Source: Candidatus Versatilivorator sp.
GTDB taxonomy: Bacteria > Acidobacteriota > Terriglobia > Versatilivoradales > Versatilivoraceae
NCBI GenBank assembly: GCA_965207735.1
Contig: OZ242296.1
Coordinates: 2,272,001 to 2,336,000 of the forward strand
Direction of reading: 5' to 3'
DNA: 64,000 nucleotides
The notes beneath the pieces were generated by a model. The model did not search any database. It was not told where the DNA came from and saw nothing but the letters and a program-made list of their open reading frames with translations. Below, in pieces: positions 15,949-58,658 of this stretch (its first letter is position 1; every line of letters begins with the position of its first letter). Made by a program: the position numbers and the translations under genes.

Positions 15949-18900
15949 CTACTCCTGGGCAGGAACGTAGGCGCCGTCTCCGCTCCGCTCTCCCGGCGCC
16001 CCGCCGTCGTTGACCACCCCGTATGCCAGGAAGGGATTGCTACCGGGAAGCCTTCTGACATGGACGTACCCCTGCCTCGTCCCCCGGGCGTGGGTGCCCA
16101 GGATGCCGTTGATCTGATGCCAGCCTCCGGCCGGAATGGCTCCGGTGGTCACCGCCTTCACCATTTCGCCCGTCTCCCCATCGTAGATATCCAGGTCGAA
16201 GACACTGTCGTCGTCATCGACCTCTCCCGTGTTGACCAGGGCCAGGTTGCTGCGGTTGGTGGCGTTCTGCTGCAGCCCGTAGATCCAGGCGCTGTCCGTC
16301 CAGGCCGAACCCTCGGGCACGGCGTTGTAGAAGACCCCGTACTGTCCCCCTCCCCCCGGCGAGCCCGTCCGCGCCCCGATCACGATCCCGCTCATGTCTC
16401 CCTCCGACACCCCGGCAAACACGGCTCCCGCAAAGGCCCGGCCGGCCGGACCGATCCCAGCCACCCCCTGCCGGCGCAGGTGGTCGACGATGTCGGGCAG
16501 GATGCGCTGCTCTCCCGCCTCCAGCCTCAGGCTGAAGCCGGGCGTGTCGTCACCGCTCTCCACCGCCTCGACCACAAAGCGGAGCTCCACCTGCTTGGGC
16601 ACCGTAGAGAAGTTCGTCACCATCAACTCGCTGGTGAAGCCCCTGACTTTGACGATCACCGGCAGCGTCTGTTCCCTCCTGCCTCTCAGTGAGTCTGCTG
16701 CCACCGGAAAGACAAACGACCCGTCCGAGTTGAAGTTGTCGTTGATCACCCCGTAGGCGTAGTAGGGCGCTGCCCCGCCAACCCGCTCCACCTTCACGTA
16801 GCCGTTGTTGTAGCCCGCCTCTTTCAGGACGCCGTTGTATTGATGGAACCCTCCCGGTGGCAACCGCAGATCCGGCAACACCAGACTCCCCGGCGCTTCC
16901 CGGTCTCCCGAGTAGACCGTCACTCTCATGGTGATGGCCCCATCGCTTGTCTCCCCCGCGTTCTGAATGGCCACGTTGGAACGGTCTGCCCGATTCTGGC
17001 GCAGTCCGGCAATCACTGATGTGCCCGTAAGCAGACCCTCCGAGGTGACTCCCACATAGGCCAGACCGGCCTGTCCCCGTCCCTCCTCCACCGGCGTGCT
17101 GGTCCTCACCGTCACCGCCGCAGCCGATGCCGAGGAAAGGTTGGAGAACTTCACCACCAGCGTCCCGCCTGCCGCGCCCTCTCCGATGGGAACTCCCAGA
17201 GAGACCAGGTAGGCGATGGCGTCGGGAATGATCCGCTGCCGGCCAGGTCCCAGAGAATCCACCGCCATGCCCGATCCCCCGCCAAAGGCGGCCCGATAGG
17301 TGTAGTGGATCTCGGCTGTGGTCGATCCCCGGTTGGTGACAGTCAGCTCGGAGGTGAAGAACGAACCCGGAGTCCGTCCCTGAGACCGCAAAACAATAGG
17401 CACAAACAGCCGGCTACCAATCCCGGTTCCCGTCACCGTAAAGTGTTCGGCGCTCACCACCATGCCCCCCGGCGTGGTCACACTGATGGGACCGCTGGTG
17501 GCGCCCGGCGGCACCACGGCCTCGATGCTGGTCCCCGATACGACCTCGAATTCGGGAGCGCTCACTCCGTTGAACAAGACCTCAGTGGCGCCAAGGAAAA
17601 GGGTCCCCGTGAGAGTGACCCTTGTGCCTACAGATCCCATTGACGGAGAGAACCGAGCGAGAGTGGGCGGTAGCAAGGCCTGGGTCGTGGCTGATGCCTC
17701 GTTTGAGAACCCGGAAGCTCCCGTGTTGTTGACTGCCCTCACCCGGTAGTGATAGGTAGTGCCGGCTTCGAGTCCCGTATCCGAATATCGACTGATATTG
17801 ACAAGGGTTGTCTTGATTTCAACCCAATCCGTCGAACCCTCAACCCGGCGCTGCACCCTGAAGCCGATCTCGTTGGTGCTGTTGTCCTGCCAGACCAGGT
17901 CGATCCCGGAGAAGGAAACCACCCTTGCCCTCAGACCTGTCGGAGGCTGAGGCGGTCGGGTCAATACACGTATGCGGTGGTTACCGGTATCAGCGATATA
18001 GACGTTGCCGGAGCGGTCCACGGACAGGGCATGGGGAGTGTGTAGACGCATACCAAGTGCCGGACCGCTTTCCCGGTTGAAGCCACCACTGAAGTAGACG
18101 TCTTGCCTGAGCCCGGCGATGGTGACAATGTTTCCCGATGAGTCCACCAGGCGGATCCTGTGGTTGCCCCTATCGGCGATATACATTGCGCCCAAGTCGT
18201 CCACGAATACGTCGCTGGGACTGTTCAACTGTGCGGCGAGCGCCGGGCCGCCGTCCCCGCTGAAGTTCCCTTCCCCCTGGCCCGCCACGGTGGTGATGGT
18301 CCCCATGGGATCCACGCGGCGGATCCGATGATTGAAGGTGTCGGCAATGTAGAGGTTTCCGCGACTGTCAAAAGCGAGTTTCTCGGCTTGGCCCAACTGC
18401 GCTGCGAGCGCCGGGCCGCCGTCCCCGCTGTAGCCTATCTCCCCGGTGCCGACAACGGTGGTGATGGTCCCCGAGGCATCCACGCGACGGATTCGGTGGT
18501 TCTGTCTGTCAGAAATGTAAACGTTGCCAGCAGAGTCCACCTCCACGCCTCGCGGGGTGTCCAATTGCGCCTCCACTCCCGGGCCGCCGTCCCCGCTGTA
18601 GCCGTATTCCCCCGTGCCCGCCACGGTGGTGATGATCCCCGAGGCGTCCACGCGACGGACGACGTGGTTGCGTGTATCGGCGATGTAAATATTGCCTTTG
18701 CCGTCCACGGACACGTCCGCCGGACGAATCAACTGTGCCGCGACCGCCGGGCCGCCGTCCCCGCTGTAGCCGAATTCCCCGGTCCCCGCCACGGTGGCGA
18801 CAATCCCCGAGGCATCCACACGATGGATCTGATGGTTCCAGGTATCGGCGATATAGAGGTTTCCGGAATCGTCCACGGCCACGCCATGGGGGTGGTTGAG

Positions 18901-21578
18901 CCGAGCCAGGATCGCGGGGCCGCCCTCGCCACTGAAATCGTTGCCGGTGCCCGCAAACGTGGTGATGGTTCCCGCCGTATCCACCCGACGGATCCGATGA
19001 TTGAAGCGATCTGCAATGTAAACATTGCCCGCAGCATCCACCGCCACGCATTCTGGAAGGAACAACTGAGCCTCAAGCGCCGGGCCGCCATCCCCACTAA
19101 AGCCCACGCGTCCCCCGGTGCCCGCCACGGTAGTAATGGTCCCTGAGGCATCCACCCGTCGGATCCGGTTGCCCTCCCGATCGGTGATGTAGATATTGCC
19201 TGCGTCGTCGACCGCAACGTCTTGGGCGTCGCGGAACGTCGCCATCGTTGCCGGCCCGCCGTCGCCGCCTGAGCCCCGTTCCCCGGTGCCCGCAATGGTT
19301 GTGATGGTGCCGGTGGCGGCATCCACCCGCCGCACCCGGCGGCCATATTCCGAGGGAATGTAAAGGTTGCCCGCGCTGTCTACCGCCACGTCAGCGGGGA
19401 CAAACAACTGTGCCTCGACTGCCGGGCCGCCGTCTCCGCTGTAGCCCCTTACCCCGGTGCCAGCCACGGTTGTGATGGTGCCCGAGGAATCCACCCGGCG
19501 GACCCGGAAGTTTTCGATATCGCCAATAAAGAGACTACCGGCAGAGTCTACGGCCACGCTAGCGGGACGGTTCAACCACGCCTCGACCGCCGGGCCGCCA
19601 TCTCCGGCGTAACCCTGCACCCCGGTGCCCGCCACGGTTGTGATGATCCCTGTGGCGGCATCCACCCGGCGGACCCGGTGGTTTCCGGGCTCAGCGATAT
19701 AGAGGTTGCCTGCACCGTCCACCGCCACGTCCGTGATATAGCCGAACCCCGCCTCGACCGCCAAGCCCCCGTCCCCGCTGTAGCCTCGTTCCCCGGTGCC
19801 CGCCACGGTTGTGATGATCCCTGTGCCGGCATCCACCCGGCGGACCCGGTAGTTCACACTGTCAGCGATATAGAGATTGCCCGCACCGTCCACCGCCACG
19901 CTGACGGGTTGTTGCAACCGCGACGATGTCGCCGGGCCGTTGTCTCCAATATTGTCCTTGCCCCCAACGATCGTGTCCATCCTCCAGCCGGAACCGGAAA
20001 CGGAACCGGCGGAGGTTGTAGCCGCGGCCTCATTGGAGTACGCGAAGACTCCGTGTTGTTGAGAGCCCGAATGCGGTAAATGTAGGTGGTGTCCGGAAAC
20101 AACTCGTCATTTGAAAAGGTGGTTGTGTTGGCGGCGGTCCTTCCGAGTTCAACCCAATGACCTGAACCATCTACCCGACGCTGAACGATGAAACCGGTCT
20201 CATTGGTGCTGTTGTCCTGCCAAGTCAGATTAATCTGGGACGCGGAAGCTGCCACGGCCGAAAGACCGGTAGGCGGCTGGAGCGTGATGGGTTGAGTGGT
20301 CAGACAACTATTGTGGTTTAAAACGTGGTCTGCAATTTGTTCCCGGGAGAACTGACAAAAGGTCAACCCCACGCCATCCCCGATGGACTGCATGAGGGTA
20401 TTGGAACATCCTGCGACTGGGGGGTTTACCTGATCGGGATGAACGGCACCGAAGTTGTGTCCGATTTCATGGGCTGGGGTAGAGAATTTTCTCAGTAGAG
20501 CAAAAGTGTCGCGCGGAAGCGCCGACAGGACATAACTACTATTTCTTTGGTAGCAGGCTACCGCAATATGAGCCAGGCCAACAATAGACGAATCCTCCCG
20601 CTCCTTGTCGGTCCAGAGATGGGCAATGTCGTAGTCCTTCGTGGCCGCGTAGTGGGTGTTCCAATAGTCGGCGAACTGATCCAACAGACCTGAAGCTGTT
20701 GTAGCAGTGTAGGGATAGGACTCATCCTGGGTGGCCCAGGCGTGCTGGAAACCGATCCGAAGCTGCAACAACAGTTCGCTCTGATAAATCCCTTCCACCT
20801 GGTTCATGATGCCCAGAATTTCACGGATGGCGGCCTCGGAGCCTCCCAGGGCCTGCACGTACTCGTAGTCGGCTTCCGTGGCCACCTCAAACACGTAATT
20901 GGTGGGGGTAACTGTCTCCACTTGAGCCGCCACCCGATTCGCGCCCTGCTGCAGACGCTCAGCCAACGACACGCCGCACCTGAAGGCCTGACCGGGTTTG
21001 AGGTCCGATTGCCTGTAGACCACCAGTTCCCCGGCCGGGGCGCTGGGAAGATAATTGCGCAAGGGCTCGAGGAAGTACCAGTCGTCAGGGGCGAACACGA
21101 CACCTTCAATCCCATTGTCCGTGAGGTTGAATCGGCCCCGCATGTCTTCCCGACCCGAAAGTGTTCCCTTGAACGTTTTGACGGTTTCCCGGGGGAGCGT
21201 TCGGATTTCCCCTTCGGGTCCCGTCTCCACTGCCCGGTAGTCGGGGGTCCGCATGTCGTGAGGCTCGATTCTGAAATAGAAATCGGCCTGGTCGAAGCGA
21301 AAGCGCAGTTCTCCGGTCGTTCGGAGCTGTCGTTCAATTTCATCGGGTTCGAAGCGGATCACTTCATAGCTCGACAGAACCGGCTGCAGCGCATTGGAGA
21401 CCTCGGTCGTCCGGGTCAGGACTCGATGGGGGCTCAAACAAATTCCAATGCCCACCAAGATCATCATGGAAAAACACAAGGAAGTACTCTTGGCACAATT
21501 CATCATTAGCTGGCTCTCTCGCCCCGCTTCGAATTCACTGTTCTTGGACATGAACGGATTGGGGAAATTCCGTATCAC
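15949..21578 (-). pseudogene. Giant secreted protein interrupted by a 1-bp frameshift near 20043: M12B/reprolysin-like zinc metalloprotease, FN3, ~12 NHL repeats, FN3, IPT/TIG, conserved C-terminal module
   Basis: HEIGHNFGAVH zinc motif in ORF 19854-21578. Adding one base turns ...NNTESSRTPM into ...NNTESSAYSNEAAATT, which matches the second FN3 end (NNTGASGFSNEASATT) and joins ORF 15949-19980. May be a sequencing error. Confidence 0.85.
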
Positions 21579-21678: not shown

Positions 21679-23106
21679 TCAGCCGCCCAGCCAGCGGAAG
21701 GCCTGCGCCACGCAGAAGCAGACCAGAAGGCCCATTGCGATGGGGAGGAGCGCCGAGATCGCCGTCCACTTGACGCTGCGGGTTTCCTTCCAGATGGTGT
21801 ATAGGGTGGTGGAGCAGGGGTTGTGTAGCAGGCTGAACAGCATCAGGTTGATTCCGGTCAGCAGCGTCCAGCCGTCGGCCTCCAGCACCCCCAGGGTGGC
21901 CGAAGCGGAATCGAACTCGAACATGACGCCGGCGCCCTCCCCCACGCCCGTGAGACCGACGCTCAGAACGGTCAGCATCAGCACGGTGGGGATGACGATC
22001 TCGTTGGCGGGGATGGCGATGATATAGGCCAGCAGGATGACGCCGTTGAGTCCGATGAGCAATCCGAATGGGTTCATTCCCTGGATCAGGTGCTCAGCCA
22101 GGCTGCCGCCGCCGAAGTGAATGTTGGAGACCAGCCAGATGGCGGCGCCCGCCGGAACGGAAAACACCACCGCCCGCCAGAGCACGATCAGGGTGCGGTC
22201 GATGAGGGAGGTGTAGATGGTCTGGAGGATGCGGGGAGGGCGGTAGGGGGGCAGCTCCAGGCTGAAGGCCGAGGCCTCTCCCTTGAGCAGGGTGCGGGAC
22301 AGCCCCCAGGATACCAGGAAGGTGCACCCCACTCCCAGCAGGACCACCGCCATCACGGCTCCCGCCGACACCAGCCCGGCCAGGGCCGGATGGGCCAGGC
22401 TGCCGATGAAGATGGTGGCGATCAGGATCTGGGTGGGCCAGCGGCCGTTGCAGAGGGAGAAGTTGTTGGTCAGGGTGGCGATCAGCCGCTCCCGCGGACT
22501 GTCGATCACCCGGGTAGCCACCACGCCGGCCGCATTGCATCCGTAGCCCATGGCCATGGTAAGGGCCTGCTTGCCGTGGGCTCCGGCCTTCTTGAACCAG
22601 CGGTCCAGGTTGAAGGCCACCCGGGGCAGATAGCCGAAGTCCTCCAACAGGGTGAAGAGGGGGAAGAAGATGGCCATGGGGGGCAGCATCACGCTCACCA
22701 CCCAGGCCATGGCCAGGAACATGCCGTCGATGAGCAACCCGTCGAGCCACCAGGCAAGACCGGCCGCGCCCGCCGCCTGCTTCAAGAGGGGATGGAGGGT
22801 TTCCAGAAAGAGAGAAGACAGGAGCTTGGAGGGGACGTTGGCCCCGGTGATGGTTACCCACAACACCACCGCCATCAGCAGCATCATGATGGGGAAGCCC
22901 AGCCAGCGGCTGGTGACCAACCGGTCGATGGTGCGGTCCAGATCGAAGGCCGGCCGGGCTTCGTCCCGACTCAGGACCCGATCCGAGATCCGGGCGGCAT
23001 CGGTATAGAGCGCCTCCATCAGCGAGTCGTGGAGGTCGGGCCCCACCTCCCAGCGCAGATTGGCCGCCGCCGACAGCACTTCCTCCCGGGGGTTGGCACG
23101 GTTCAT
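21679..23106 (-). CDS. feoB: FeoB membrane domain (gate domains), encoded as a separate gene
   Basis: [47 protein letters not shown]. Confidence 0.92.
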
Positions 23107-23927
23107 CCCGCCCTCCCCGCCGGCGCCGCCGCTCCGATCCCTCCCGGGCTCCTCGCCAATCCGGCCAGCTCCCCCGACCGCACGGCCTCTTCGATCCTGG
23201 CGTCTCCCTCCAGCAGGCGCAGGGCCACCCAGCGGGCATTGGGAAGTTCGGGAAAAGCCGCCCTCAGCTTTTCCACCAGCAGGCTGACGGCGCGCTTGAG
23301 CGCCGGGGGCTCGCTCTGAATGCGATGAGGCTTGCAGACGAAACTGCCGGTGGCGACCTGGTGGATCATGTCGATCACCTGGGGGACGCCCCGCCCCTGG
23401 CGGGCCGCGGCGGGCACCACCGGGACGCCCAGCTCCCGCGCCAGGGATCGTTCGTCGACGGTCATACGATGCCGTTCGGCTTCATCCATGAGGTTGAGGC
23501 AGACCACCGCCCGCCCGGTGATTTCCAGCACCTGGCAGACCAGGTTGAGGTTGCGCTCCAGCCGGGTGGCGTCCACCACGATCACGGTCACGTCGGGCTG
23601 GCCGAACAGGATGAAGTCGCGCGCGATCTCCTCGTCGGTGCTGGTGGACAGCAGCGAGTAGGTGCCCGGCAGGTCGACCAGCTTGTAGTTGCTGCCCTGG
23701 TAGGCGAAGCCGCCCTCGGCCCGGGTCACGGTCTTGCCCGGCCAGTTGCCGGTATGCTGGCGAAGGCCGGTGAGGCTGTTGAACAGGGTGCTCTTGCCGG
23801 TGTTGGGGTTGCCGGCCAGGGCCACCACGAAGTCGTAGCGGTCCATGTTCACCCCCAGCCGCTTCAGATTGGCCGGATGGTGGGCGGGACAGACCTCGCA
23901 GGCACTCGGAGGATGAGTCGGTTGCAT
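23103..23927 (-). CDS. feoB: FeoB N-terminal GTPase domain, encoded as a separate gene
   Basis: [28 protein letters not shown] (G1-G4); ATGA overlap with the membrane-domain gene. Confidence 0.92.
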
Positions 23928-25807: not shown

Positions 25808-25904
25808 TTTAGAGTAGCCGAAAAAGACACCCTCCGCAAGACTCCAATGTGTTCTCTACAGGTTAGCAAGAGCTCTATGGAAATTTATTAGACTCATCTA
25901 AAAA
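25808..25904. promoter_or_regulatory. Two candidate DtxR/MntR-family operators (TTAGA-N4-TCTAA)
   Basis: Perfect TTAGActcaTCTAA at 25888-25901 and imperfect TTAGAgtagCCGAA at 25809-25822, in AT-rich DNA directly upstream of the repressor gene. Confidence 0.65.
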
Positions 25905-28702: not shown

Positions 28703-30628
28703 TCACTCGGCCACCGTCACCAGGGCTTCCGCCAGCGGTCCCTGGGTGACGCCGTCCACGACGATCTCGGCCGTCATCAAGCGGCGCACTCCGTCGGCGG
28801 CCTCGGGGGCGGTGGCCGACAGTCGGACCTCACCCTTCCCCCCGGCAGGCAGTGCAAGCTCGGAGAACTCGCTACGGGCGCTCCATCCGTCGGGAGGTAT
28901 CAGGCGCGCCTGGAAGGTGGCTTCGGTTTCCAGGTTGTTGCGGAGCAGCAGCCGGTATTCCAGAGACTGCCCCGGCTTGACCTCGGCCAGGTAGGGCAGC
29001 ATCCGCGCCCAGAACAGGTCGATGTACTTGTCGCTGGGTTCGGCCACCAGGTTCCGGAAGACCCGCTCCTTGCGGTTAATGAAGTCCGAGTACTCCCGCA
29101 ACAGCGAGGGGTCGCACTTCCAGACTCCAATGTGACCGGGACAGATCAGGTCGGGGGCCACCTGGTTCATGACCTCGATGCAGCGGCGGTGCATGTCGAG
29201 CTGAAAGCTGTTGCGCAGCACCGTGGTCTGATAGGGCCTGGTCTCCGCCTTGCCGGCGACCAGCGCTTCCTGCAGGAAGTAATTGTCGCCGGTGAAGGCC
29301 ACCCACTGGCCGTCGATCTCCCCGCTCAGGACCGAGTGGTACTCGGTCTGGCCGGGGGCGAAGTGGATGTCGAAGGTGTACTCCTCCCAGTCGAACCGCT
29401 CCCGGTCGCTCAGGGTCCGGTCGATGCGGATGGGCTTGTGGAAGGTGCAGGGGGTGGAGCTCCAGGCGGCGGGGTCGGCCAGAACCTGGGCCACCGCATC
29501 CAGGGCCCAGCAGCGGGTGCCGTAGAACTGCTGCAGGTGAGGGATGCCGCAGGTGTGGTCGTCGTGGATATGGGTGGGAATCGCCAGGTCCAGGGTGTGC
29601 ACCCCGTACTCCTTGCGGAGCTGCTTGAGATGGTGCTCGATGAACCGCATCACCTCCAGCCCGTTGTGGTCGGCGAAGGTGTGCATGTGGGGATGGAAGG
29701 CGTGGCCGTAGTCGACGAACAGCGCCTTTCCCGAATCGGAGAGGATCACGTAGAAGAAGGAACAGGTCCAGGAGCCTCCCCAGAGGAGGTGTTTGGAAAG
29801 CTCCACGAACCTGGGCTCGGGCAGGTAGAGCATCTCGGGAATGCTCTCCCTCCCGCCGACCCGCATGCCCCGGCCCAACGAGACCAGTTGAAGCAGGGAC
29901 TTCTCCAGTCGGTCGATGTCGCCCACTGGGTCTTCGATCGGTCCTCCGTGGGAAGGTAGTCCCAGGGGCGTCCCCGAGACGGAGTGGGTGTGGCCACCCA
30001 CCACTTCCCCGCTGAGCGCGTCCCTCAGGACCTGGATGGACTGCAGGGTGAAGAGGGCGCCGGTCATGTCTCCATAGGTGTATTCCATGGCGTGGAGCTG
30101 GTAGAGCTTGCCCCCGTTCACCATGAGGTCTCCGCTGAAGACCACCAGCCGCCCGTCGATCTCCGCCAGCAGCGCCACCGAGCCTTGCGTGTGCCCCTTG
30201 GCCGGCAGCACGTAAAAGCGGTAGCTGCGCCAGGCAAACTCCTCGTAGTCGTTCAGCGTGGCCGAGACCGGCAGATCCCGGGCCACCGTCAAGAAGTTGT
30301 TGCGGTCGTCATAGTTGTCGTAGACCCGGCGGGTCTGCCAGAACAGCTCGGCCTTCTCGAAGAGATGGCTCTCGTACTGGGGGACCGCCAGCCTGGCCCC
30401 GGCCTCGATCAGCCGGGGGTCGCCCCAGCACTGATCCCGGTGGTGGTGGGTGTGGAGGACCCACTCCACCTTGCTGCAACCGATTTCGGCCAGAGAGTCC
30501 AGCACGGCGCCGGAGCCGGCGTCGATCAGCAGAGCCGACTCGCCGTCCTTGACGACATAGACATTGCAGGTGTCGGTGAAACGGTAGAGATTCTCGGAAA
30601 TTCTTTCCATGGTGGCCATGGGCGTCAC
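28703..30628 (-). CDS. Tandem metallo-beta-lactamase-fold hydrolase with C-terminal Ig-like domain
   Basis: LIDAG...THHHRDQ...GHTQGS...SGDL and VDYG...THIHDDH...TGDN...PGH. Confidence 0.85.
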   Translation of the reverse strand: MTPMATMERISENLYRFTDTCNVYVVKDGESALLIDAGSGAVLDSLAEIGCSKVEWVLHTHHHRDQCWGDPRLIEAGARLAVPQYESHLFEKAELFWQTRRVYDNYDDRNNFLTVARDLPVSATLNDYEEFAWRSYRFYVLPAKGHTQGSVALLAEIDGRLVVFSGDLMVNGGKLYQLHAMEYTYGDMTGALFTLQSIQVLRDALSGEVVGGHTHSVSGTPLGLPSHGGPIEDPVGDIDRLEKSLLQLVSLGRGMRVGGRESIPEMLYLPEPRFVELSKHLLWGGSWTCSFFYVILSDSGKALFVDYGHAFHPHMHTFADHNGLEVMRFIEHHLKQLRKEYGVHTLDLAIPTHIHDDHTCGIPHLQQFYGTRCWALDAVAQVLADPAAWSSTPCTFHKPIRIDRTLSDRERFDWEEYTFDIHFAPGQTEYHSVLSGEIDGQWVAFTGDNYFLQEALVAGKAETRPYQTTVLRNSFQLDMHRRCIEVMNQVAPDLICPGHIGVWKCDPSLLREYSDFINRKERVFRNLVAEPSDKYIDLFWARMLPYLAEVKPGQSLEYRLLLRNNLETEATFQARLIPPDGWSARSEFSELALPAGGKGEVRLSATAPEAADGVRRLMTAEIVVDGVTQGPLAEALVTVAE

Positions 30629-30699
30629 ACTCCCTGAAGATCAAGATTGAGCTGAAATGGCCCGCAGAATACCATCTTCTCCCGGAGCCACCAAGGAGG

Positions 30700-32913
30700 T
30701 CAGGACAGGTTCAGGGCCCGGGACTGCTCCTCGATGGAGGCGAAGAGTTGCCGCTTCTCGGATTGGCTGGGGGTGTTCCGGTAGGCGTTGAGGACTTCCT
30801 TCATGCCCACCAGCCCCTTGTACAAGCCGGCGTTTTCCAGGGGTGGCGTGAGGTAGGAGATCAGCTCGGCGCTGCTGCGGCGCTTGGCGATGGTCCCTTC
30901 GGAAGGATTATTGACGCTGTAGAGGTAGAGATGGGGCATGGCCCCCAAGAGGCGGTCGGGCCAGCAGCCGGAGGAGAGCCCGACCTGCTTGCCCGGCATG
31001 AACTCGGCCGCGCCGTGGGTGCCCACGTGGATGAGGGCGTCGGCACGATAGACCTTCTGCAGGTAGCAGTAGAGGGCCATGAAGCCGTGGTGGGGGGAGC
31101 CTCCCTGGGCCGTCAGCATCCGCATGGGATCGCCCTCGTAGCCAAAGCCGGGTTGGACACCAATGAAGGCGTTCCCCAGCCGGGCGCCCAGAATCATCAG
31201 ATCCCTGCCGGACGCATTGAGGACTCCCGGGGCCGGACCCCACTCCCGCTCGATCTCACTCACGTGGGGACACAGTTTCCGGTACTCCTCCACCGGCATC
31301 CGATAGGCCACGTTGGCCACCGTCCCCCAGGACTGGGAGTTGCCCTCCAGGACCTGGCGGCGAAGTTCCTCCGGGCCCTGCAACCGCGGAATGGCATATC
31401 CCTCGGCCCGGAGCCGGGTCAGCACCTCCAGCAGGCTGGCGAAGACGTCCAGGTCGGCGGCCGTGCCCAGATTCCCCTTGTTGGGAGGAAAGCAGAAGAT
31501 CACCAAAGCCAGTTTCAGGCTGTGGCGGGGAGCGGTCTGCAGGCGGTTCCAGCCGGCCAGCCTGGCGGCAATGAGCCGGCAGCGCTCCGCCAGCGGTTCG
31601 GGCTGGCGGCTCTTGTGGCGCACGCCTCCATACAAGCGGGACTCGGTGGCTCCGTCCAGCTCGGGGATGGCCACCTGCATGGCGGTCTGCACGGGATTCA
31701 GACCCACGCGGCTCTGCTCCCAGCTCTCGATGGTCTGCAGGTCCAGTGAGACCAGGGAGCGGAAGGGAATGCCGAGCTCTCCGAGAAACTCCACCGAGGC
31801 TTCGGTGTCGTTCATCACCGGCCCCCCCACGAAGCTGAACCCGGTCAGCGAAACGATCTGGCTGACCCGCGGACGCGGACGTCCCTCGCCGTTATCAGGG
31901 GGAGAGGCAGTGACACCGTTTCCCTCCTCCAGGAAGTAGGCGCGGCAGGCCTCCCGGTTGTCCATGAAGGTGGAGATGGCCGCCACCACCGACAGTCCCT
32001 CGGCCTCGATGGCCCCTATCAGCCCGTCGTAGTGCCGCCGGGCTTCCCCCACGATCTGGGGACGCATCAGCAGCAGACCCACGGTGGCCCGGGGATCCAG
32101 ACTGCGCCCGGTGGCCGCCCGGTACCAGTCCCGGTAGGCGCTGAAGCTCTCGAACAGATCGGGCGCCAGCGGGTGGTAGAGCCCGGTGGAGGGCCGCACC
32201 TCGGGCGGGTCGGGCGCCGCCAGGGTGGCGTGGCCCGGCACGTAGTGCTTGACGGCGTGCAGCAACATGGAGCGAATGTTCTTGGGAGTGGGTTGCAGGA
32301 AGTGGCAGTAGAGGATGAGGTAGTTCTTGATGTCCCTCAGTTTTCCGGCGCCGGGAACGAATTTCAGGATTGTGGGCAAGCGCCCGGCGAGCTTGTGGTA
32401 GGCGTTGAAGCTCCCTTTGCCGGAGCGGGAGCCCCTGCCCGAGCGCGAGGCGGCTCGCCGGGACATCAGCTCAGACATCCAGGTTCCCAGGCGGTGAGCC
32501 AGGCTCTGACCCGATCCCGGACGGCCGGCCCGGCGGCCCGAGCGCTTGAGGGTGGACATCAGGCGGCCCAGATCCAGCTTGCCCATGCGGGTCCGGCCCA
32601 TCAGATCGGCCAGGCAATTGAACACGATCACCGCATGGTGGCGATGGCGGAAGCGGTCCAGGGCCTCCAGCAGGCGCCGGCTGTTGTCCGAATCGGTCAG
32701 GTGCATGACCAGCACCAGGTCGGCCCCGGCGAGATCCTCCAGGGCCGCCTCCCACTCGGGATCCGACCAGGCGGCTCCGCCGTTGTGGGCGGCCAGGCGC
32801 AGCTCCAGTCCATGCTCCCGGATCTCGCTTTCGGCCCTCCGCAACGGGGCCAATATGCTGGAGCCCACGTAAAACACCACTACCTGGACCGGATTCGGGA
32901 CTGAATCCTTCAC
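30700..32913 (-). CDS. Class I chelatase H subunit (ChlH/BchH type), N-terminal half
   Basis: FPPNKGNLGTAA, QPGFGYEGDPMRML, PHHGF, HVGTHGAAEFMPGKQ, NNPSEGTIAKRRS, YLTPPLENAGLYKGL; GTG at 32913 with AAGGAG RBS, overlapping the upstream TGA. Confidence 0.9.
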   Translation of the reverse strand: MKDSVPNPVQVVVFYVGSSILAPLRRAESEIREHGLELRLAAHNGGAAWSDPEWEAALEDLAGADLVLVMHLTDSDNSRRLLEALDRFRHRHHAVIVFNCLADLMGRTRMGKLDLGRLMSTLKRSGRRAGRPGSGQSLAHRLGTWMSELMSRRAASRSGRGSRSGKGSFNAYHKLAGRLPTILKFVPGAGKLRDIKNYLILYCHFLQPTPKNIRSMLLHAVKHYVPGHATLAAPDPPEVRPSTGLYHPLAPDLFESFSAYRDWYRAATGRSLDPRATVGLLLMRPQIVGEARRHYDGLIGAIEAEGLSVVAAISTFMDNREACRAYFLEEGNGVTASPPDNGEGRPRPRVSQIVSLTGFSFVGGPVMNDTEASVEFLGELGIPFRSLVSLDLQTIESWEQSRVGLNPVQTAMQVAIPELDGATESRLYGGVRHKSRQPEPLAERCRLIAARLAGWNRLQTAPRHSLKLALVIFCFPPNKGNLGTAADLDVFASLLEVLTRLRAEGYAIPRLQGPEELRRQVLEGNSQSWGTVANVAYRMPVEEYRKLCPHVSEIEREWGPAPGVLNASGRDLMILGARLGNAFIGVQPGFGYEGDPMRMLTAQGGSPHHGFMALYCYLQKVYRADALIHVGTHGAAEFMPGKQVGLSSGCWPDRLLGAMPHLYLYSVNNPSEGTIAKRRSSAELISYLTPPLENAGLYKGLVGMKEVLNAYRNTPSQSEKRQLFASIEEQSRALNLS

Positions 32914-34646
32914 GGAGCGACTCCTTCCAGGGCGTCTTCCAAACCGGCAAACACTTCTCTGAGCCGGCTCAACACCTCGGGCCTGGCCGACCAGAACCCT
33001 CGCCCGGAGGCTTCCAGCAGCCGGCCCACCAGGGTCTGGGCCGAGTGGGGGTTGAGGCTCTGCAAACGCTCGAGCATCTGCGAGTCCAGCACGAAGGTCT
33101 CGGCCACCTCGTCGTAGATCCAGTCCTCGACCGCATCGGCCGTGGCCGACCACCCGAAGGTGTTGGTCAGTTGGTGCTCGATCTCGGCCACGCCGCTGAA
33201 GCCGTGCTTGAGCATGCCCTCGTACCACTTGGGATTGAGGACCTTGGTTCGGCTCTCCAGTTGCAGCGTTTCCTGAAGGGTGCGAACCCTGGAACGGGGG
33301 GTGAGCGAATCGGAGAGGTAGACTTGCGGCCGCTTGCCGGACCGTTCCTCCACGGCCTTGGTCACCCCTCCCAGGTACTCGAAGTAGTGGTCCACATCCG
33401 ATATGCCCACCTCGGTGCTGTCGATGTTCTGATAGCTGGCTTCCACGCGGGAGAGGGCGCTGTCCAGCAGCGCCTGGGCCTCCCGCCCTTCCAGGGGGCG
33501 GCCCCGGGCGTCGCGCCCGTAGGCGAAGCACTTGCGCTTGACGAAGAGGTCTCCCAGCTCCCTGGAATCCTCCCACTGGCTCTGCAGCACCATGAAGTTG
33601 ACGTTGGTGCCGTAGTTTCCGGCCGCATTGGAGAACACGCGGGTGGCCGCTTCCTCGAAGGTGGACCGGCCCTGGGCGATCTGCTGTTGGACGTGCTTGC
33701 GGATGAAGTTTTGGTCCGGAGGCTCCTCCAGGGCCGCCACCCGCTTGACGGCCCGGTCCAGCAGCTCCATGGTGGAGGCGAACAGGTCCCGGAAGATGCC
33801 CGAGACGGTCATGACCACGTCGATTCTGGGCCGCCCCAGCTGCTCCAGGGGAATGGCCTCCACCTCGGTCACCCGGTTGAGTCCATCCCGCACCGGCCGC
33901 ACCCCCAGCAGCCACAGCACCTGGGCCACCGCCTCTCCCTCCTTCTTGATGTTGTCGATACCCCAGAGCACCATGGCGATGGACTCGGGGACCCGGCCGG
34001 TCTCCTGCCGGTGGCGTTCCAGCAGGGCCCGGGTCAGGGGCTCGGCCCGGCCAAGGGCCAAGGGAGTGGGGATGGCATAGGGATTGATGGCATGAGTGTT
34101 CCTGCCGGTCGGCAGAATGGCGGGGTTCTGCAGCAGGTCCCCTCCGGGTCCGGGCGGCAGGTAGTTTCCCCTCAGGCCGGCAACCAACCCCTCCAGCTCC
34201 CGGTTGGACTGCAGGCGCAGGTTCAGCCTGCCCAGGAAGGCCAGGATTTCCAGGGACGCATCCTCAGCCACGCCGGCACGCTGCCGGAGCCAGAGCGCCG
34301 TTTCCCGCTCGGGTTGCGCTCCCGGCGCCAGCAGGCGCCCGATGGTCTCCCGGGTCAGGTCTTCCACCGACTCCCGCTCCCGCATCCGCTCCGCGGAGGC
34401 CTGGCTCTCCTCCAGCAACCGGGCATAGGGCGGCAACCCCAGGCTCGCGGCAATGAGATCGGTCAGGGCCGGAAGGCCGAGCTCCGGCCTGGGGAAGGAG
34501 CCCACCATGGCCAGCAGGTGAACGGTCTCGGCCGCGCCGCCAGGCTTGCCGAAGGTGTGGAGTCCGGTCGGAATGAGGCGCTGTTCGATTTCCAGCACCC
34601 TTTCATAGAGGTCCAGCACCCGGCGGTCGCGTTCTTCGCTGGTCAT
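32910..34646 (-). CDS. Class I chelatase H subunit (ChlH/BchH type), C-terminal half
   Basis: EIEQRLIPTGLH, PGPGGD...LPTGRN, VLWGIDNIK, RPRIDVV..VSGIFRDLF, DVDHYFEYLGG, RTKVLNPKWYEGML, GWSAT. Confidence 0.9.
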   Translation of the reverse strand: MTSEERDRRVLDLYERVLEIEQRLIPTGLHTFGKPGGAAETVHLLAMVGSFPRPELGLPALTDLIAASLGLPPYARLLEESQASAERMRERESVEDLTRETIGRLLAPGAQPERETALWLRQRAGVAEDASLEILAFLGRLNLRLQSNRELEGLVAGLRGNYLPPGPGGDLLQNPAILPTGRNTHAINPYAIPTPLALGRAEPLTRALLERHRQETGRVPESIAMVLWGIDNIKKEGEAVAQVLWLLGVRPVRDGLNRVTEVEAIPLEQLGRPRIDVVMTVSGIFRDLFASTMELLDRAVKRVAALEEPPDQNFIRKHVQQQIAQGRSTFEEAATRVFSNAAGNYGTNVNFMVLQSQWEDSRELGDLFVKRKCFAYGRDARGRPLEGREAQALLDSALSRVEASYQNIDSTEVGISDVDHYFEYLGGVTKAVEERSGKRPQVYLSDSLTPRSRVRTLQETLQLESRTKVLNPKWYEGMLKHGFSGVAEIEHQLTNTFGWSATADAVEDWIYDEVAETFVLDSQMLERLQSLNPHSAQTLVGRLLEASGRGFWSARPEVLSRLREVFAGLEDALEGVAP

Positions 34647-34654
34647 CGATCCCC

Positions 34655-36628
34655 TCAACCGACCGCCCTGCCCCGGACGTCCTCGGCCACCGACTTCACC
34701 GCCTGAAACAGCGCCCCCTGGTCCGTTCGGGGCAGCCGCAGGTAGCGCGCCCCGATCCGGTCGGCCAGGGTCCGGCCCTCTCCCCCGGCCAGAAAAGGGG
34801 GCCGGGTATCCACCACCACCGCGGTCAAGGCCTCCTGACGGATCTCGCCGCCCAGCAGTTGCAGTTCCCGCTGCAGGGCAGCCGCTTTCGAGCCCTGTCC
34901 CAAGGGCGCCGGACGGACCGGACGGTTGGCCCGGCCGTCGGTGAGAATTAGCAGCACCGGTTGGGGAGAGCCGCGTAGCCGAGCAGCGCGCGCCACCTCC
35001 AGGGCCTGCACCAGCCCGGCGGCCAGGGGGGTGGCTCCGCCGGCGGGCAGAGCCTCCACCAGGCGCATGGCCCGCTCGACGCTTCGGGTGGGCGGAAGCA
35101 GCGTTTGGGCACCGTCGCCGCCGAAGCGGACCAGCGCCACCTGGTCCCGAAAGACATAGGCCTGCTGCAAAAGCCGGGCCGTGGCGCCCTTGGCCTGGGC
35201 CATGCGGTTCACGGCCATACTACCACTGGCGTCCACCACGAAGACAAATAGGATCCCGGCCTTGCTCCGAAAACGGTGGAAGCGCAAGTCCGAGGCCCGG
35301 ATGACCATTCCGGCCCCCACCCTGCCGGCCGGTCCGCGCCCGCCTGCGCGGGGACGGTCCCGATCGTCTCCGGGGACCGCGGCCGCCTGCCGCCGGCGCC
35401 AATACTGCCAGGGGGCCGCTGCCCGCAGGGTTGCCGCCACGGCTATGGAACGCCTGCGGTCCGGCTGCAGGCCGGCGCGGAAGGCCCTCCCTGGAGAACC
35501 GGGAAGCCTCTGGGACATGGTCCCTTGCCGGCGGCCGGCGGCCCGGGAAGCCGGGAGCTGGGCGACCATCTCCTCGGGGAACTTTCCGGGAAGGGCGTCC
35601 ACCGGCCTGGGCGGCTCCTGGGCGGGCGGCGAGCGGTCTTCGGTGGGGGCGCCGGGTTCGGGGCCGGGAGCTTCATCGCCCTGCCCTTCCTCCGGCCGGG
35701 CCTGCTCATGCCGGGGGCCGGCGGCGGGCTTCTCATCCACCGGCAGGGCTCGGGGCCACAGGACCAGCCGCGCCGCCATCTCCAGATCCTTCTCCGACAC
35801 CTGGCTGCGTCCGGCCAGGGCCGCGTGGGCCCGGGCCGCCCATATGGCAAACAGGTCCAGCCGATGTCCCTCCAGCCCCAGTCGAGCGGCTTCGCCGACG
35901 AGTCGGCGCAGGTCGCCCTCGGAGATGCCGACCTGGCCCATCCGGCTCCGGGCTTGCAGAATGGATTCGGCAGCGGAGGGGGCCGGGCCGGAGCCGGCGG
36001 GCGCCACAGCGGAGCCGGCGGGCTCCCAACCCGGCCGGCCTTCTTCATAACCCCGCAGCAGCTCGAGCACCCGGCGCCGCTGATCCAGGTCGGGCGTGTA
36101 GGAGCCGTCCACCAGCAGTCCTACCCGGGCCTCAATGATGGCCCCAGGGCGGCCTTCGGCGGGATCGTAGGCTCCCACCAGGGCGAACCTGGCGGGGTGG
36201 GAAGTGCTGACACCCTCCCGTTCGACCCCGACCCGGCCTGAGTCGAGCGACGAGGCGATGGCGCGGAGAGGGGCTTCCGGCAGCAGATTGACGTGATCGA
36301 CCTGAAGAACCCCCCGGTCCGCCTGGGCAAGCAGCCCCTTGCGGTAGCGCCAGCGCGCTCCGGCCGCCTCCGGCTCCGGACTCAAGCCCCCCAGCAGCCG
36401 GTCTTGGCCAACTCCCAAGGGAACCCTCACCAGAGCGGCCTCGCGACCGTCCGGCTTCAGGGCCTCCAGCAGGGAGACGAAGACCTTCACCAGCTTGCGC
36501 TTGCCCGTCCCGGAAGGCAAAGCCATCAGCAGGCCGCCCAGGCGAGGCTCGACTGCCAGCAACAGCAAGGCCCGCTTCGCCAACGGCTGACCCACCACGG
36601 AAGCAAAAAGATCATCGAGAATGGTCAT
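34655..36628 (-). CDS. bchD: Chelatase D subunit (degenerate AAA+ domain, Pro/acidic linker, VWA domain)
   Basis: DRLLGG, GLLAQADRG, VEREGVS, IAVAATLRAAAPWQ, FVVDASGSM (MIDAS), GGATPLAAGL, LTDGRAN. Confidence 0.85.
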   Translation of the reverse strand: MTILDDLFASVVGQPLAKRALLLLAVEPRLGGLLMALPSGTGKRKLVKVFVSLLEALKPDGREAALVRVPLGVGQDRLLGGLSPEPEAAGARWRYRKGLLAQADRGVLQVDHVNLLPEAPLRAIASSLDSGRVGVEREGVSTSHPARFALVGAYDPAEGRPGAIIEARVGLLVDGSYTPDLDQRRRVLELLRGYEEGRPGWEPAGSAVAPAGSGPAPSAAESILQARSRMGQVGISEGDLRRLVGEAARLGLEGHRLDLFAIWAARAHAALAGRSQVSEKDLEMAARLVLWPRALPVDEKPAAGPRHEQARPEEGQGDEAPGPEPGAPTEDRSPPAQEPPRPVDALPGKFPEEMVAQLPASRAAGRRQGTMSQRLPGSPGRAFRAGLQPDRRRSIAVAATLRAAAPWQYWRRRQAAAVPGDDRDRPRAGGRGPAGRVGAGMVIRASDLRFHRFRSKAGILFVFVVDASGSMAVNRMAQAKGATARLLQQAYVFRDQVALVRFGGDGAQTLLPPTRSVERAMRLVEALPAGGATPLAAGLVQALEVARAARLRGSPQPVLLILTDGRANRPVRPAPLGQGSKAAALQRELQLLGGEIRQEALTAVVVDTRPPFLAGGEGRTLADRIGARYLRLPRTDQGALFQAVKSVAEDVRGRAVG

Positions 36629-36642
36629 GGAAATCCGGAACA

Positions 36643-36783
36643 GAGTTATCCACGAAGAGGAACGAAGGATTGTAGATTGTAGATTGTAGATTGTAGATTG
36701 TGGATTGTAGATTGTGGATTGTGGATCTAAGGCGGAATCAGTTGCCGTCAATCCTCAATCAACAATCAGAAATCAACAATCAA
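36643..36783. repeat. Heptamer satellite (GATTGTR)x8 facing inverted (AATCAAC)n
   Basis: Eight copies at 36668-36723; related elements at 38066 and 55031-55125. Confidence 0.85.
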
Positions 36784-36797
36784 GAGGCGAAACCTCG

Positions 36798-37915
36798 TTA
36801 GCCGCCGGCGGCCTGGGCATCGCCGGTCTCCAGGGGGAACACCCTCTCCAGGGCCTGCTCGATCCGGGCGGCGGATTCGAGCGGCTCCAGGGGATCCTTG
36901 CGAAGCCGGTGGCGCAGCGACATGACGGCCACCCGCCGGATGTCCTCGGGCAGGACGGCCTCCCCTCCCCGCCAGGCAGCCAGGGCGCGGGAGGCGCGAT
37001 AGAGGGTCAGCTCACCCCGGTGGCCGGCCACCTCCAGCCTCAAACAGAGCTCGGCCATCCCCCTCAGCAGCTCCGCATCCACGCCGACCCGGGAGATGAG
37101 GGACAGGGCCGCCTTCAGCTTGCGCCGCAGCTCCTCCTGGAGGAGTTCCGCCCGGGAGCAGAATCCGGCCGGATCCTGTTCGAAGCTCTGGCGCCTGCGC
37201 ACGATCTCGACCCGCTCGTCCAGGTCATCCAGCGTCTTGACCTCCACGAACAGTCCGAAGCGGTCCAGCAACTGGGGCCGCAACTCCCCTTCCTCGGGAT
37301 TGCCCGATCCCACCAGCACGAAACGGGCGGCGTGGCTCACCGAGATCCCCTCCCGCTCCACCTGGTTGCGGCCGCTGGCGGCCGCGTCCAGCAGAAGGTC
37401 CACCAGGTAATCCTCCAGCAGATTGACCTCGTCGATGTAGAGAAAACCCCGATGGGCCTTGGCCAGCAACCCGGGCTGGAACACCTTGACCCCCCGGTTC
37501 AAGGCCTGCTCGATGTCAAGACTGCCGCAGACCCGGTCTTCGGTGGCCCCAGGGGCAGATCGACCACCGGGGCGGCGAAGGTCTCGCGGGGCAGACGCTT
37601 GCCCTTGCCCTGGCGTTCCCGGCATTCCCGGCAGAGGTCTCGAACCCGCCCCGGATCGCAGTTGAAGGGGCAGCCCTTCACCCGTACCTTGGGAGGCAAA
37701 AGGTCGGCCAGGGCCCTCACTGCCGTGGACTTGGCCGTGCCCCGATGACCCATGACCACCACGCCTCCGAGCTGGGAGTCGAGCACCGCCAGCAGCAGGG
37801 CCAGCTTCATGTCCTCCTGGCCGACGATGGCCGAAAAAGGGTAGACGGGGGGAGCGACTCCCCGAGGCGGCTTGGCTTTCCTGGACTTGGTCGAGCGGGG
37901 TTCAGGCAGGCTCAC
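36798..37915 (-). pseudogene. bchI: Chelatase I subunit (AAA+) with a 1-bp frameshift in a G-run near 37547-37550
   Basis: [18 protein letters not shown] in one frame; [39 protein letters not shown] in the other. One extra G restores LPLGATEDR; likely a homopolymer error. Confidence 0.9.
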
Positions 37916-38065
37916 GTGTCAAGGGGTGTGATCGGGAGTCCGGCTCCAGGCGCTTGCCGGGGGCCGGGACATCCGGGGGAATGTTCAGGCAGTCGGCGAT
38001 TCTACTCGCTGCCTAACCCTAATGGCAGAGGGGCGGACTGTCAAGGATGTGGAGACAACCCACGA

Positions 38066-38242
38066 GGGATTGTAGATTGCTGTCGCCGCCTACGCGGCTC
38101 GGACTCTTACGCTAAGCTTTCCATGGGCTTACGCCCACGGCTACCTGCTGCCGCGGCTTCGCCGCTCTACTGGAACCCGGGCTGGCGCCCGGGGACTCAT
38201 CATTTAGAGCCTTTTGCACAAGGCTCAACAATCAACAATTCA
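38066..38242. repeat. Composite repeat: GATTGTA heptamer, REP family A, GAGCCTT...AAGGCTC palindrome, AATCAAC
   Basis: Matches 13629-13757, 55031-55144 and 58967-58994. Confidence 0.7.
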
Positions 38243-58200: not shown

Positions 58201-58658
58201 TCGCCACCCCGGCCCAGGGAGACATGAGCGGCATTGTGATCGGGGCTCGGACAGGAGCTCCGGACCAGAGAGGCGGCCAGTACAGCCTCTTCTACAACGG
58301 GGTGCCCTATGGTTCGGCTTCGGTCGAAAGCGCCTGGATCTTCGGGCTGCAGCAGAACGCGGAGAACCGCAGCAACCTGGCCCTGGTCAATACCGGCGAA
58401 ATCGACGGCAGCTCCAGCACCTTTGAGATCACGATTTACGACGGCAGCGGGCGGTCTCAACCGAGAACCAGAAGTGTGACGCTCAGGCCCCGGCGATGGA
58501 CTCAGGTAAATGGAATTCTGGGCAATATCCGTCAAGGATACGTCCAGGTAAGGAAAACCTCGGGCAACAATCCGTTTGTCACCTATGGCGTGATCAATGA
58601 CGGCGGCAGGCCCGGGGAGCGCAGCGGGGACGGCGCTTTCCTGCTCAGCCAGAAATAG
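55218..58658 (+). CDS. Plant-type leucine-rich repeat protein (~18 LRRs), FN3-like segment and conserved C-terminal module (start may be downstream, e.g. 55292)
   Basis: 24-aa repeats LxxLxLxxNxLxGxIPxELGxL; N-cap DCKAL...LNW...WDGITV; C-terminus resembles that of the 15949 protein. Confidence 0.92.
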   Translation: MSRGSNGAGGCYLSKKSRAVHGVHGMRRQAIWKEWVSCIGARSGWILTAGLILVGSSPPLLGCDDGMAVPDPENNPGLVADCKALMAARDKLDGNDRLNWDADFVIESWDGITVSGSPPRVTGLSISPLHISGEIPPELGQLSHLTDLYLAGSLISRHFLTGEIPPELGQLARLKTLYLNDNLLTGPIPPELGQLSQLIALNLGSNQLTGPIPPELGNLSRLEGLHLWTNQLSGEIPRELGQLVELRELTLGGNHLTGVIPLELGQLSQLGWLDIGFNQLTGAIPPEMGQLSRLGRLSLRNNQLTGVIPVELGQLPLLGWFYVSDNQLSGEIPTELGQLPRLRELDLSNNRLRGNIPLTLGQLTNLERLSLAGNQFTGEILAELSQLSHLKELRLSNNRLQGKIPSYLGQLTNLEELSLAGNQLEGKIPVELSQLSVLGLLDLSNNQLSGEIPAELSQLTLLQTLLLSGNRLTGGIPKELGKLPQLWGLYLDNNQLAGMIPPELGQLSLVILHLQHNKLTGSIPAELGQLSNLREFSFRGNLLTGSVPSELGHLPDVYVLNLAATRTAADRIEVSWDDPGDTTVSYEYRLLDTTRTWTEWSLIEHPETTLRRGDGHAIEWTLAVLPTNVTYRAIQIRVSNAKGSYTSNAGVRHLVTVASGDADPTEGSLFVPVLLTSAGRSNAYFTSELTLTNRGTEEATLHYTYRAHAGGGSGTATDRLAPGSQRIQSDAIGYLTGLGIPIPGSGNRIGTLRVDVSGSSRVSLTTRTTSGVPDGRAGLAYPGIAEDEGFQEAVYLCGLRENTQDRSNLAVQNMGASEDGPITLRTTVFSGEADDTVPRVLGDLELKPGEFHQYNQVLKAVGSPAQGYVKVEKVDGDAPFYVYGVINDNFNSDGSFVFPLTGSSLVGRSGQTLPVIIETGSFQSELTLTNFSASEKTVDFRFVADAVDTGDDTAAFSLTLKAGEQRVLPDIVEELRRREVAGIGPSGRAFVGALFATPAQGDMSGIVIGARTGAPDQRGGQYSLFYNGVPYGSASVESAWIFGLQQNAENRSNLALVNTGEIDGSSSTFEITIYDGSGRSQPRTRSVTLRPRRWTQVNGILGNIRQGYVQVRKTSGNNPFVTYGVINDGGRPGERSGDGAFLLSQK

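Follow-up and report, generated by a model that had tools for sequence, protein, structure and literature searches.

What does a magnesium chelatase do in a bacterium in whose genome no chlorophyll pathway is found, and why is its large subunit in two pieces? The question is raised by a 64,000-nucleotide (nt) window from a Candidatus Versatilivorator genome (Acidobacteriota; source genome G000), in which a minus-strand operon carries the I, D and H subunits of a BchH/ChlH-type class I chelatase, with H divided over two genes. Coordinates below count from window position 1. Mg-chelatase is taken to mark chlorophyll synthesis, and its H subunit is regarded as a chain that cannot be divided. Judged from its genes, the enzyme described here is a class I chelatase of BchH descent that fails two defining features of Mg-chelatase, the single chain and the chlorophyll pathway. 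We propose, tentatively and at less than even confidence, that it is a BchH-derived cytoplasmic haem b de-chelatase with a two-gene H subunit, and we infer its direction, metal and purpose alike. Neither a split H subunit nor a BchH from non-phototrophic Acidobacteria is described in the literature searched, mostly outside subscription papers, and Acidobacteria are not mentioned in the accessible parts of two relevant papers (PMC9227772, PMC10156173).

The H Subunit Is Encoded by Two Genes

The minus-strand order is I, D, H C-half and H N-half, the C-terminal half being encoded ahead of the N-terminal half:

36798..37915, minus strand: BchI/ChlI-type AAA+ ATPase, small subunit (I); TIGR02030 matches on both pieces
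34655..36628, minus strand: BchD/ChlD-type AAA+/vWA subunit (D) with the MIDAS (metal-ion-dependent adhesion site) motif DASGSM; TIGR02031 and Pfam VWA matches
32910..34646, minus strand: H C-half (HC), 578 aa, starting within domain IV and running to the end, H420 corresponding to ChlH H1174; profile and structure matches
32921..32926, minus strand: AAGGAG ribosome-binding site of the N-half, inside the 3′ end of the C-half gene; from the sequence
30700..32913, minus strand: H N-half (HN), 737 aa, comprising the head (DUF3479), the neck, domain III and the start of domain IV; profile and structure matches

This reading combines open reading frames, profile and structure matches, short-read contigs and comparison with relatives. 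An earlier note, made from the sequence of the window alone, had described the same order and the same two lengths, and the sequence confirms both. It likewise confirms the ribosome-binding site and the GTGA overlap claimed for the N-half: the TGA that ends the C-half (32912-32910) shares bases with the GTG that starts the N-half (32913-32911), and AAGGAG lies 7 nt before that start. The C-half begins with MTSEERDRRV and the N-half ends with ALNLS. D likely starts at the ATG at 36628, its reading frame being open from 36751, and scores 484 bits against TIGR02031 (cut-off 499.6).

The division of H is not a misassembly. One short-read contig each from runs X1 and X2 covers 30600-36718, spanning D and both halves, with zero differences; because these runs may come from the source sample, they are a check on the assembly and not on the biology. 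Together with the same split in relatives, these contigs reject a misassembly or frameshift as its origin; the earlier note had argued against a frameshift. That note overlooked a frameshift in the assembled I gene near 37546. Contigs of X1, X2 and X3 have one extra base at this point and I is in a single frame in 11 of 11 relatives, so the break is an assembly error, and a pseudogene reading based on it is rejected. Contigs from RNA run X20 match both halves at about 93% identity and one crosses the junction, which need not reflect expression. Relatives close to this locus occur in X20, a run labelled as a sponge metagenome.

Both halves match ChlH best. The N-half aligns with Synechocystis ChlH (PDB 4ZHJ) over chain residues 167-744 at 484 bits (CobN 179, HmuS 143) and the C-half over residues 761-1350 at 503 bits (CobN 297, HmuS 246), so that the two tile ChlH without overlap. 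Against complementary parts of the NCBIfam BchH profile they score 658 and 675 bits, compared with 236 and 351 for the CobN profile TIGR02257. These scores bear out the earlier suggestion that the halves represent the two sides of a ChlH linker and fit ChlH/BchH better than CobN. The split point falls in a linker whose length ranges over 0-47 residues in the 42 full-length proteins compared. The nearest fused relative of the N-half is 39% identical, the two halves are the sole CobN/Mg-chelatase matches in G000, and an ESM Atlas search returned generic CobN/Mg-chelatase clusters only. Folded alone, the N-half is predicted with a mean predicted local distance difference test score (pLDDT) of 73, its active-site loops being of low confidence. 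The maximum 19-residue hydropathy is 1.55 and 1.14 in the two halves, with no hydrophobic segment at the termini, and by this measure neither half has a membrane anchor.

Single Origin within BchH/ChlH and Conservation of the Active Site

Quick trees were made for each half from 31 hand-picked split loci plus G000 (32 rows for the C-half, 31 for the N-half). Each half forms one clade (support 99-100 in the Shimodaira–Hasegawa-like approximate likelihood ratio test, SH-aLRT) within BchH/ChlH and apart from CobN-like rows, and on these gene trees the split form is shown to have a single origin. Constraining the split clade beside the CobN-like rows is weakly rejected (approximately unbiased test, p-AU 0.039). 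The earlier note had called for a tree; those made here place the enzyme inside BchH/ChlH and not in canonical CobN. Descent from the BchH of acidobacterial phototrophs is also rejected (p-AU 0.015, 26-row quick tree).

The catalytic residues of ChlH are H621, E625, Y651, Y653, E660 and H1174 (PMC13297055); we mapped them by subtracting 20 from the chain number, an offset confirmed with the E660D entry. Their equivalents are kept in 31/31 N-halves and 32/32 C-halves, including those from loci without a motor (below). Five lie on the N-half (H633, E637, Y663, Y665 and E672, for H621, E625, Y651, Y653 and E660) and one on the C-half. H633, E637 and E672 are common to 9/9 CobN-like rows as well and so do not specify Mg. 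The C-half residues H420 and E423, invariant in 32/32, form a domain V H-x-x-E motif that matches H1209/E1212 of the haem de-chelatase HmuS; the motif also occurs in Chloroflexota and acidobacterial BchH and hence is not diagnostic. In HmuS, two histidines (H538 and H1209) face each other across the cavity (PMC12583661). Since the two facing histidines would sit on different halves here, H633 (31/31) on the N-half and H420 on the C-half, HN and HC presumably form a heterodimer.

The split clade also has features of its own. Of the positions conserved in BchH, 11 in the N-half and 9 in the C-half carry changes specific to this clade. In the head, a domain required for ChlH activity (PMC4255732), G17, S19, N44, H71, D74 and N99 are specific to the clade and present in 31/31 N-halves, C100 in 30/31. 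These seven residues sit at the ends of four head strands in the predicted model and may form a new ligand site.

Distribution of the Two-Piece Enzyme

The locus survey covered the best 80 loci among the matches listed. A stand-alone C-half is found in 57 of them, the remaining 23 being fused proteins, nearly all from phototroph lineages. The N-half follows the C-half on the same strand in 55 of the 57 split loci, and the other two stop at a contig edge. The earlier note had asked whether the order I-D-HC-HN is kept in other genomes; for the two halves of H, it is in these 55. The C-half occurs in 13/13 genomes of the genus, 16/30 of the family and 10/351 of the phylum; the unpublished G107 belongs to the phylum sample and is not one of these 10 carriers. 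Of 151 genomes in the class of G190, 45 have the split N-half (44/150 without the unpublished G533), three of these being contig-edge fragments. The split form is commonest in family f46 (29/35 genomes); fused BchH is confined in that class to family f56, where DPOR is present in 4/4 genomes tested. The N-half lies apart from the C-half in G265, G462 and G491, so the halves are independent genes. Broken C-halves (G001, G010) and broken N-halves (L027, L045) are seen in assemblies alone. NCBI annotation calls several C-halves "CobN".

Most Pyrinomonadaceae loci (e.g., L054:1631-3640) have, in place of I and D, a single gene for an I-D fusion of about 690 aa, which scores on TIGR02442 below the cut-off. 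The split clade thus comes in four-gene, three-gene and two-gene forms.

Unsplit relatives were met along the way. G468, G493 and G499 (L209, L210), genomes of 5-6.7 Mb, represent a second genus in the family of acidobacterial phototrophs, with a fused BchH adjoining hemA plus DPOR/COR and BchM. A genome labelled as a Candidatus Kapaibacterium metagenome-assembled genome (G447) encodes I, D and a full-length, 1,256-aa BchH-like protein (L067:5327-11668) among the housekeeping genes purH, mreBCD and rplM. Profile searches did not find DPOR, BchM or BchG in it, and by its gene content it is a second, unsplit case of a non-phototroph BchH. Only two C-half trees place this BchH as the sister of the split clade.

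A Subclade Has Lost the I/D Motor

The MIDAS is intact in 60/60 D rows and Walker A in 60/60 I rows. BchI scores above the TIGR02030 cut-off in 45/57 carriers, is broken by the assembly error in G000, and has no match in 11/57; some of these genomes are incomplete, but the completeness of G372 is 97%. In 10/11 BchI-less carriers the assembly covers the usual slot, upstream of the C-half, which is either empty or filled by other genes, and BchD is absent in 5/5 tested. The nine motor-less loci that were placed form one clade in the C-half tree (support 100); in the N-half tree seven group together and two fall among motor-bearing rows. Ratios of nonsynonymous to synonymous substitution (dN/dS) are 0.06-0.15 for the motor-less halves (11/12 gene pairs unsaturated) and 0.05-0.30 for motor-bearing pairs; these ratios show purifying selection on both halves of the motor-less subclade. 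Mg insertion needs the I/D motor (PMC13297055) and is uphill by about 25-33 kJ/mol (PMC4982103); de-chelation by HmuS needs no ATP (PMC12583661). Loss of the motor, as read from gene content, argues against plain Mg chelation.

Pigment-Pathway Genes and CbiC Are Missing, and Haem Appears to Be Made via Coproporphyrin

G000 is a single contig and 100% complete. Whole-genome profile searches found none of PsaA/B, Photo_RC, DPOR/COR, BchM, BchG or CbiC in it, so the search that the earlier note had proposed reveals no phototrophy set. Among carriers, none has DPOR/COR (0/35), BchM (0/29) or BchG (0/21) above the cut-off; the phototroph controls G210 and G468 score above it for the three pigment families. 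CbiC/CobH is found in 0/5 carriers, other cob genes not being searched, and profile scores, trees and this absence reject a cobaltochelatase. HemH is present in 5/5 carriers, which rejects a replacement for ferrochelatase.

In 13/21 carriers, G000 included, neither HemF nor HemN is found above the cut-off; 12 of these 13 have a ChdC-family gene. In the coproporphyrin route, reported in three of four Acidobacteria (PMC10740692), iron is inserted before the vinyl groups form, so that free protoporphyrin IX (PPIX) is not an intermediate (PMC7242693, PMC10740692). G000 has hemE, hemY and a HemH nearest to coproporphyrin ferrochelatases (179 bits; human enzyme 127). Its ChdC-like gene (C1:3689313-3690035; L231:313-1035) is divergent and closes the ccm operon, directly behind ccmC; 8/8 other genomes of the family give comparably weak ChdC matches. 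AhbD is not found above the cut-off in 5/5 carriers tested, G000 among them, and HemF, HemN, ChdC and AhbD were all not found in G324 (99% complete). From these genes, G000 and most carriers tested appear to make haem via coproporphyrin, and the apparent lack of both known routes to free PPIX in 13/21 carriers argues against plain Mg chelation.

Together, the pathway searches, the trees and the short-read contigs support the role first suggested for this locus, a four-component BchH-type class I chelatase outside photosynthesis: the complete genome has no phototrophy set, the halves fall outside canonical CobN, and the reversed order is not a misassembly.

Respiratory and Other Neighbours

The wider recurring neighbour is a respiratory Rieske/cytochrome b operon together with cytochrome c maturation genes. 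An operon for a Rieske protein, split cytochrome b, subunit IV and an octahaem cytochrome c lies downstream of the N-half in 43/55 loci; counting loci with at least 1.5 kb of room, the Rieske/cytochrome b operon is there in 40/49, at a median gap of 567 nt. It runs on into ctaA/ctaB and cytochrome oxidase genes. A small opposite-strand gene often lies between, so co-transcription of the chelatase and this bc operon is doubtful. Upstream of the chelatase are ccm genes (26 of 57 loci; ccmA), resBC (3) or gap-pgk-tpi-secG (13). The adjacency extends to G324 and G483. Two Bryobacteraceae-labelled bc operons share Blastocatellia signatures and so are not independent cases of linkage. At L141 (G324), the bc operon after the chelatase is without the octahaem cytochrome.

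The bc complex itself does not follow the chelatase. No cytochrome b or subunit IV residue tracks its presence (22 versus 25 loci), the multihaem subunit has 8 CxxCH motifs in 27/27 loci whether or not the chelatase is there, and the bc complex of G000 groups with chelatase-free ones. A bc complex specialised for the chelatase product is rejected, as no residue or haem motif co-varies. In G000, this operon (C1:3648542-3659583; L113) encodes a Rieske protein, a split cytochrome b without the haem ci cysteine and a subunit IV with APWY, then an octahaem cytochrome c, ctaA, ctaB and oxidase subunits, a type seen in 37/351 genomes of the phylum.

In the family of G000, the chelatase neighbours are instead a metallo-hydrolase, OsmC and DtxR/FeoB. 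The flanking features of the operon in the window are:

38016..38044, minus strand: predicted sigma-70 promoter, TTGACA-17 nt-TAGGGT, upstream of I; a candidate from a sequence match
28703..30628, minus strand: two-domain metallo-beta-lactamase-fold hydrolase, 71 nt downstream of the N-half; library match

This promoter-like hexamer pair, at a spacing of 17-18 nt, precedes I in the window and in 10/10 family loci examined. The hydrolase is possibly co-transcribed with the chelatase; it adjoins it in this genus and one sister genus only, and is absent from that position in G017 and in other families. The earlier note had pointed to a DtxR/Feo operon about 5 kb downstream. The position is right (it begins at 25777, 4.9 kb downstream), but the adjacency is local to this family and its operator is not found at the chelatase promoter. 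A palindrome, TTAGAT-N-AGTCTAA, lies at 25888-25901, with a weaker copy at 25809-25822, before two DtxR-like genes, and is closely similar in 8/8 relatives examined; none is found at the chelatase, and control of the latter by the neighbouring DtxR-like regulator is rejected. Comparison of the regions upstream of the chelatase, in 40 Pyrinomonadaceae-type loci and in 10 motor-less ones, revealed no shared operator either. The feoB near the DtxR-like genes is encoded in two parts (23927..23103 and 23106..21679).

In f46 loci (L219:12075-13619, L020:14377-16260 and others), a YifB/ComM-type AAA protein is encoded downstream of the N-half in 9/23 loci compared; this adjacency is probably local synteny. 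Short 7-bp tandem repeats (AATCTAC/AATCCAC type) occur in intergenic spacers at 36670-36790 and 38225-38240; they lie upstream of I in several relatives too and cause spurious promoter matches. Large NHL-repeat and leucine-rich-repeat proteins are encoded at 15949-19980 and 55218-58658.

A Possible Haem De-chelatase

In the mechanism that we tentatively favour, HN and HC would reassemble into one porphyrin-binding cage, a heterodimer, which, powered by the I/D ATPase, would act in the cytoplasm and take the iron out of haem b instead of inserting Mg. Its purpose would be the recycling of iron and the trimming of the free-haem pool around respiratory cytochrome assembly and turnover. BchH ancestry suggests a ligand with a protoporphyrin skeleton, and haem b is the candidate because carriers using the coproporphyrin route would never hold free PPIX. 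Removal is the suggested direction because taking out the iron is the uphill step for which an ATP motor would pay, and because the homologue HmuS does this chemistry. The BchH-type cavity, the apparently missing PPIX route, the lack of a user of Mg-PPIX, the dispensable motor and the haem-protein neighbours all point to haem b as the ligand.

Several observations weigh against this proposal. I and D score as Mg-chelatase subunits, with 45/57 I proteins above the TIGR02030 cut-off. HemF and/or HemN is present in 8/21 carriers, including 4/4 from f46, and so Mg chelation is open to those 8. The haem route does not track the chelatase, since 7/11 non-carrier relatives also lack HemF and HemN. 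The ChdC-like gene of G000 is weak (31 bits; cut-off 235), ChdC-like proteins fall under NCBIfam cut-offs, and G000 has one unassigned HemN-like radical SAM protein (C1:1037237-1038580; 180 bits; cut-off 325). The cytochrome adjacency is absent in the family of G000, whose own bc operon is 1.3 Mb from the chelatase in G000, and in 13/13 f46 loci. Of 37 genomes with this type of bc complex, 27 are without the chelatase, though this bc type occurs in each of the 10 carriers; G093 and G119, which are without the chelatase, keep the same ccm-Rieske locus. Finally, features of HmuS are absent (membrane anchor, hmu neighbours), and the proposal does not explain where the released protoporphyrin would go.

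An ATP-dependent Mg (or Zn) chelatase is a somewhat less likely competitor. It would make unmethylated Mg-protoporphyrin IX for a non-photosynthetic use, as a signal or as a cofactor of a b6-type bc complex. Nesting in BchH/ChlH, the retention of all named ChlH catalytic residues, the intact MIDAS and Walker A motifs and the presence of HemF/HemN in f46 are as this reading would have them. The adjoining complex has a split cytochrome b plus subunit IV, and subunit IV of b6f binds chlorophyll a (PMC5600118). It is set back by the 13/21 carriers in which no known PPIX route is found, by the motor-less subclade persisting under selection, by the absence of a BchM or BchG that could act on the product or add its tail, and by a bc complex whose residues and haem motifs are the same with or without the chelatase.

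Another substrate or direction is unlikely. Here the enzyme would insert Fe into salvaged PPIX, or move Zn, Co or Ni into or out of coproporphyrin III as proofreading. Coproporphyrin ferrochelatase may handle PPIX poorly; iron insertion is downhill and would tolerate loss of the motor; HemN is present in 3/3 motor-less genomes tested; and the changes at BchH-conserved positions in both halves could shift specificity. Against this, HemH is in 5/5 carriers, G093 and G119 have HemN and no H subunit, and no cobalamin pathway is indicated (CbiC, the only cob gene searched, being absent from 5/5).

A non-catalytic haem or porphyrin carrier or sensor feeding cytochrome maturation, with I/D as release factor, is quite unlikely. 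The locus is flanked by the bc operon on one side and by cytochrome c maturation genes of two non-homologous systems on the other, motor loss is tolerated, and the seven clade-specific residues, at strand ends in the model, belong to the head, to which a second haem binds in HmuS (PMC12583661). However, every catalytic residue is invariant, also in motor-less rows, and sister genomes build the same cytochromes without the chelatase.

More speculative, and improbable, is a metal-swapping machine on a deep non-photosynthetic BchH branch, which would convert haem b to Mg- or Zn-protoporphyrin for the chlorophyll a site of the b6f-type subunit IV and so furnish a respiratory bc complex with a chlorophyll-like cofactor. 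A decaying relic of lost phototrophy without present function, for which the patchy distribution, clean losses and the broken halves in G001, G010, L027 and L045 (assemblies alone) might speak, is scarcely credible and already largely refuted by dN/dS of 0.05-0.30 in all unsaturated pairs, carriage by 13/13 genomes of the genus and the rejected descent from BchH of acidobacterial phototrophs.

A whole non-phototroph clade thus keeps a two-piece BchH-type enzyme under selection, and most of its cells appear not to make the classical substrate. If the enzyme is a de-chelatase, a family known from photosynthesis would gain a new, testable job. Any outcome would be informative, whether haem is de-chelated in the cytoplasm, Mg-protoporphyrin proves to have a use outside photosynthesis, which would be its first, or the pair carries haem. 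The contrast between motor-bearing and motor-less pairs amounts to a natural experiment on the role of ATP in class I chelatases, and with H in two pieces the active site can be opened and mutations made in one half at a time. The labels CobN and Mg-chelatase that pipelines put on these halves can mislead inventories of B12 synthesis and phototrophy.

Comparison with Known Chelatases

CobN (PDB 7C6O, 9UK9), which works with a ChlID-type motor, belongs to the same superfamily, but the split enzyme scores lower against it, stands on a separate branch and comes without CbiC/CobH (found in 0/5 carriers). The BchH paralogues of non-phototrophic Actinobacteria, Limnochordia and Dehalococcoidia (PMC11194577) are likewise BchH-like, placed among phototroph sequences, in hosts without chlorophototrophy; they are reported "exclusively in Terrabacteria", and the accessible part of that paper describes neither a split form nor an acidobacterial case.

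HmuS of Bacteroides thetaiotaomicron (PDB 9D26, 9P4S; PMC12583661) shares the class I large-subunit fold, the facing histidines and the H-x-x-E motif, and acts without an I/D motor, as the motor-less split subclade would. Its similarity is far lower (143 and 246 bits). HmuS, encoded in an hmu uptake operon, consists of a single chain that is anchored in the membrane and carries a methionine-rich insertion, and it has a haem site at Met-79/His-254; in the split head, the invariant residues are a set of their own. The split enzyme lacks a membrane segment and in most cases comes with an ATPase motor; no hmu genes are among the annotated neighbours of split loci. For HmuS, a hand-off of iron to FeoB is proposed (PMC12583661).

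The closest known system is BchH/ChlH-I-D (Synechocystis ChlH, PDB 4ZHJ/6YSG; isoform BchH1), to which both halves come nearest by sequence, by profile and by fold. Shared with it are the DUF3479 head, the equivalents of H621, E625, Y651, Y653, E660 and H1174, and BchI/BchD-type I and D subunits. Unlike BchH/ChlH, which is one polypeptide of about 1,250-1,400 aa, the H subunit described here consists of two genes, C-half first and sometimes unlinked; its hosts have no BchM, DPOR, BchG or reaction centre, and in most of those tested no known PPIX route is found; its head carries clade-specific residues, and one of its subclades does without the motor.

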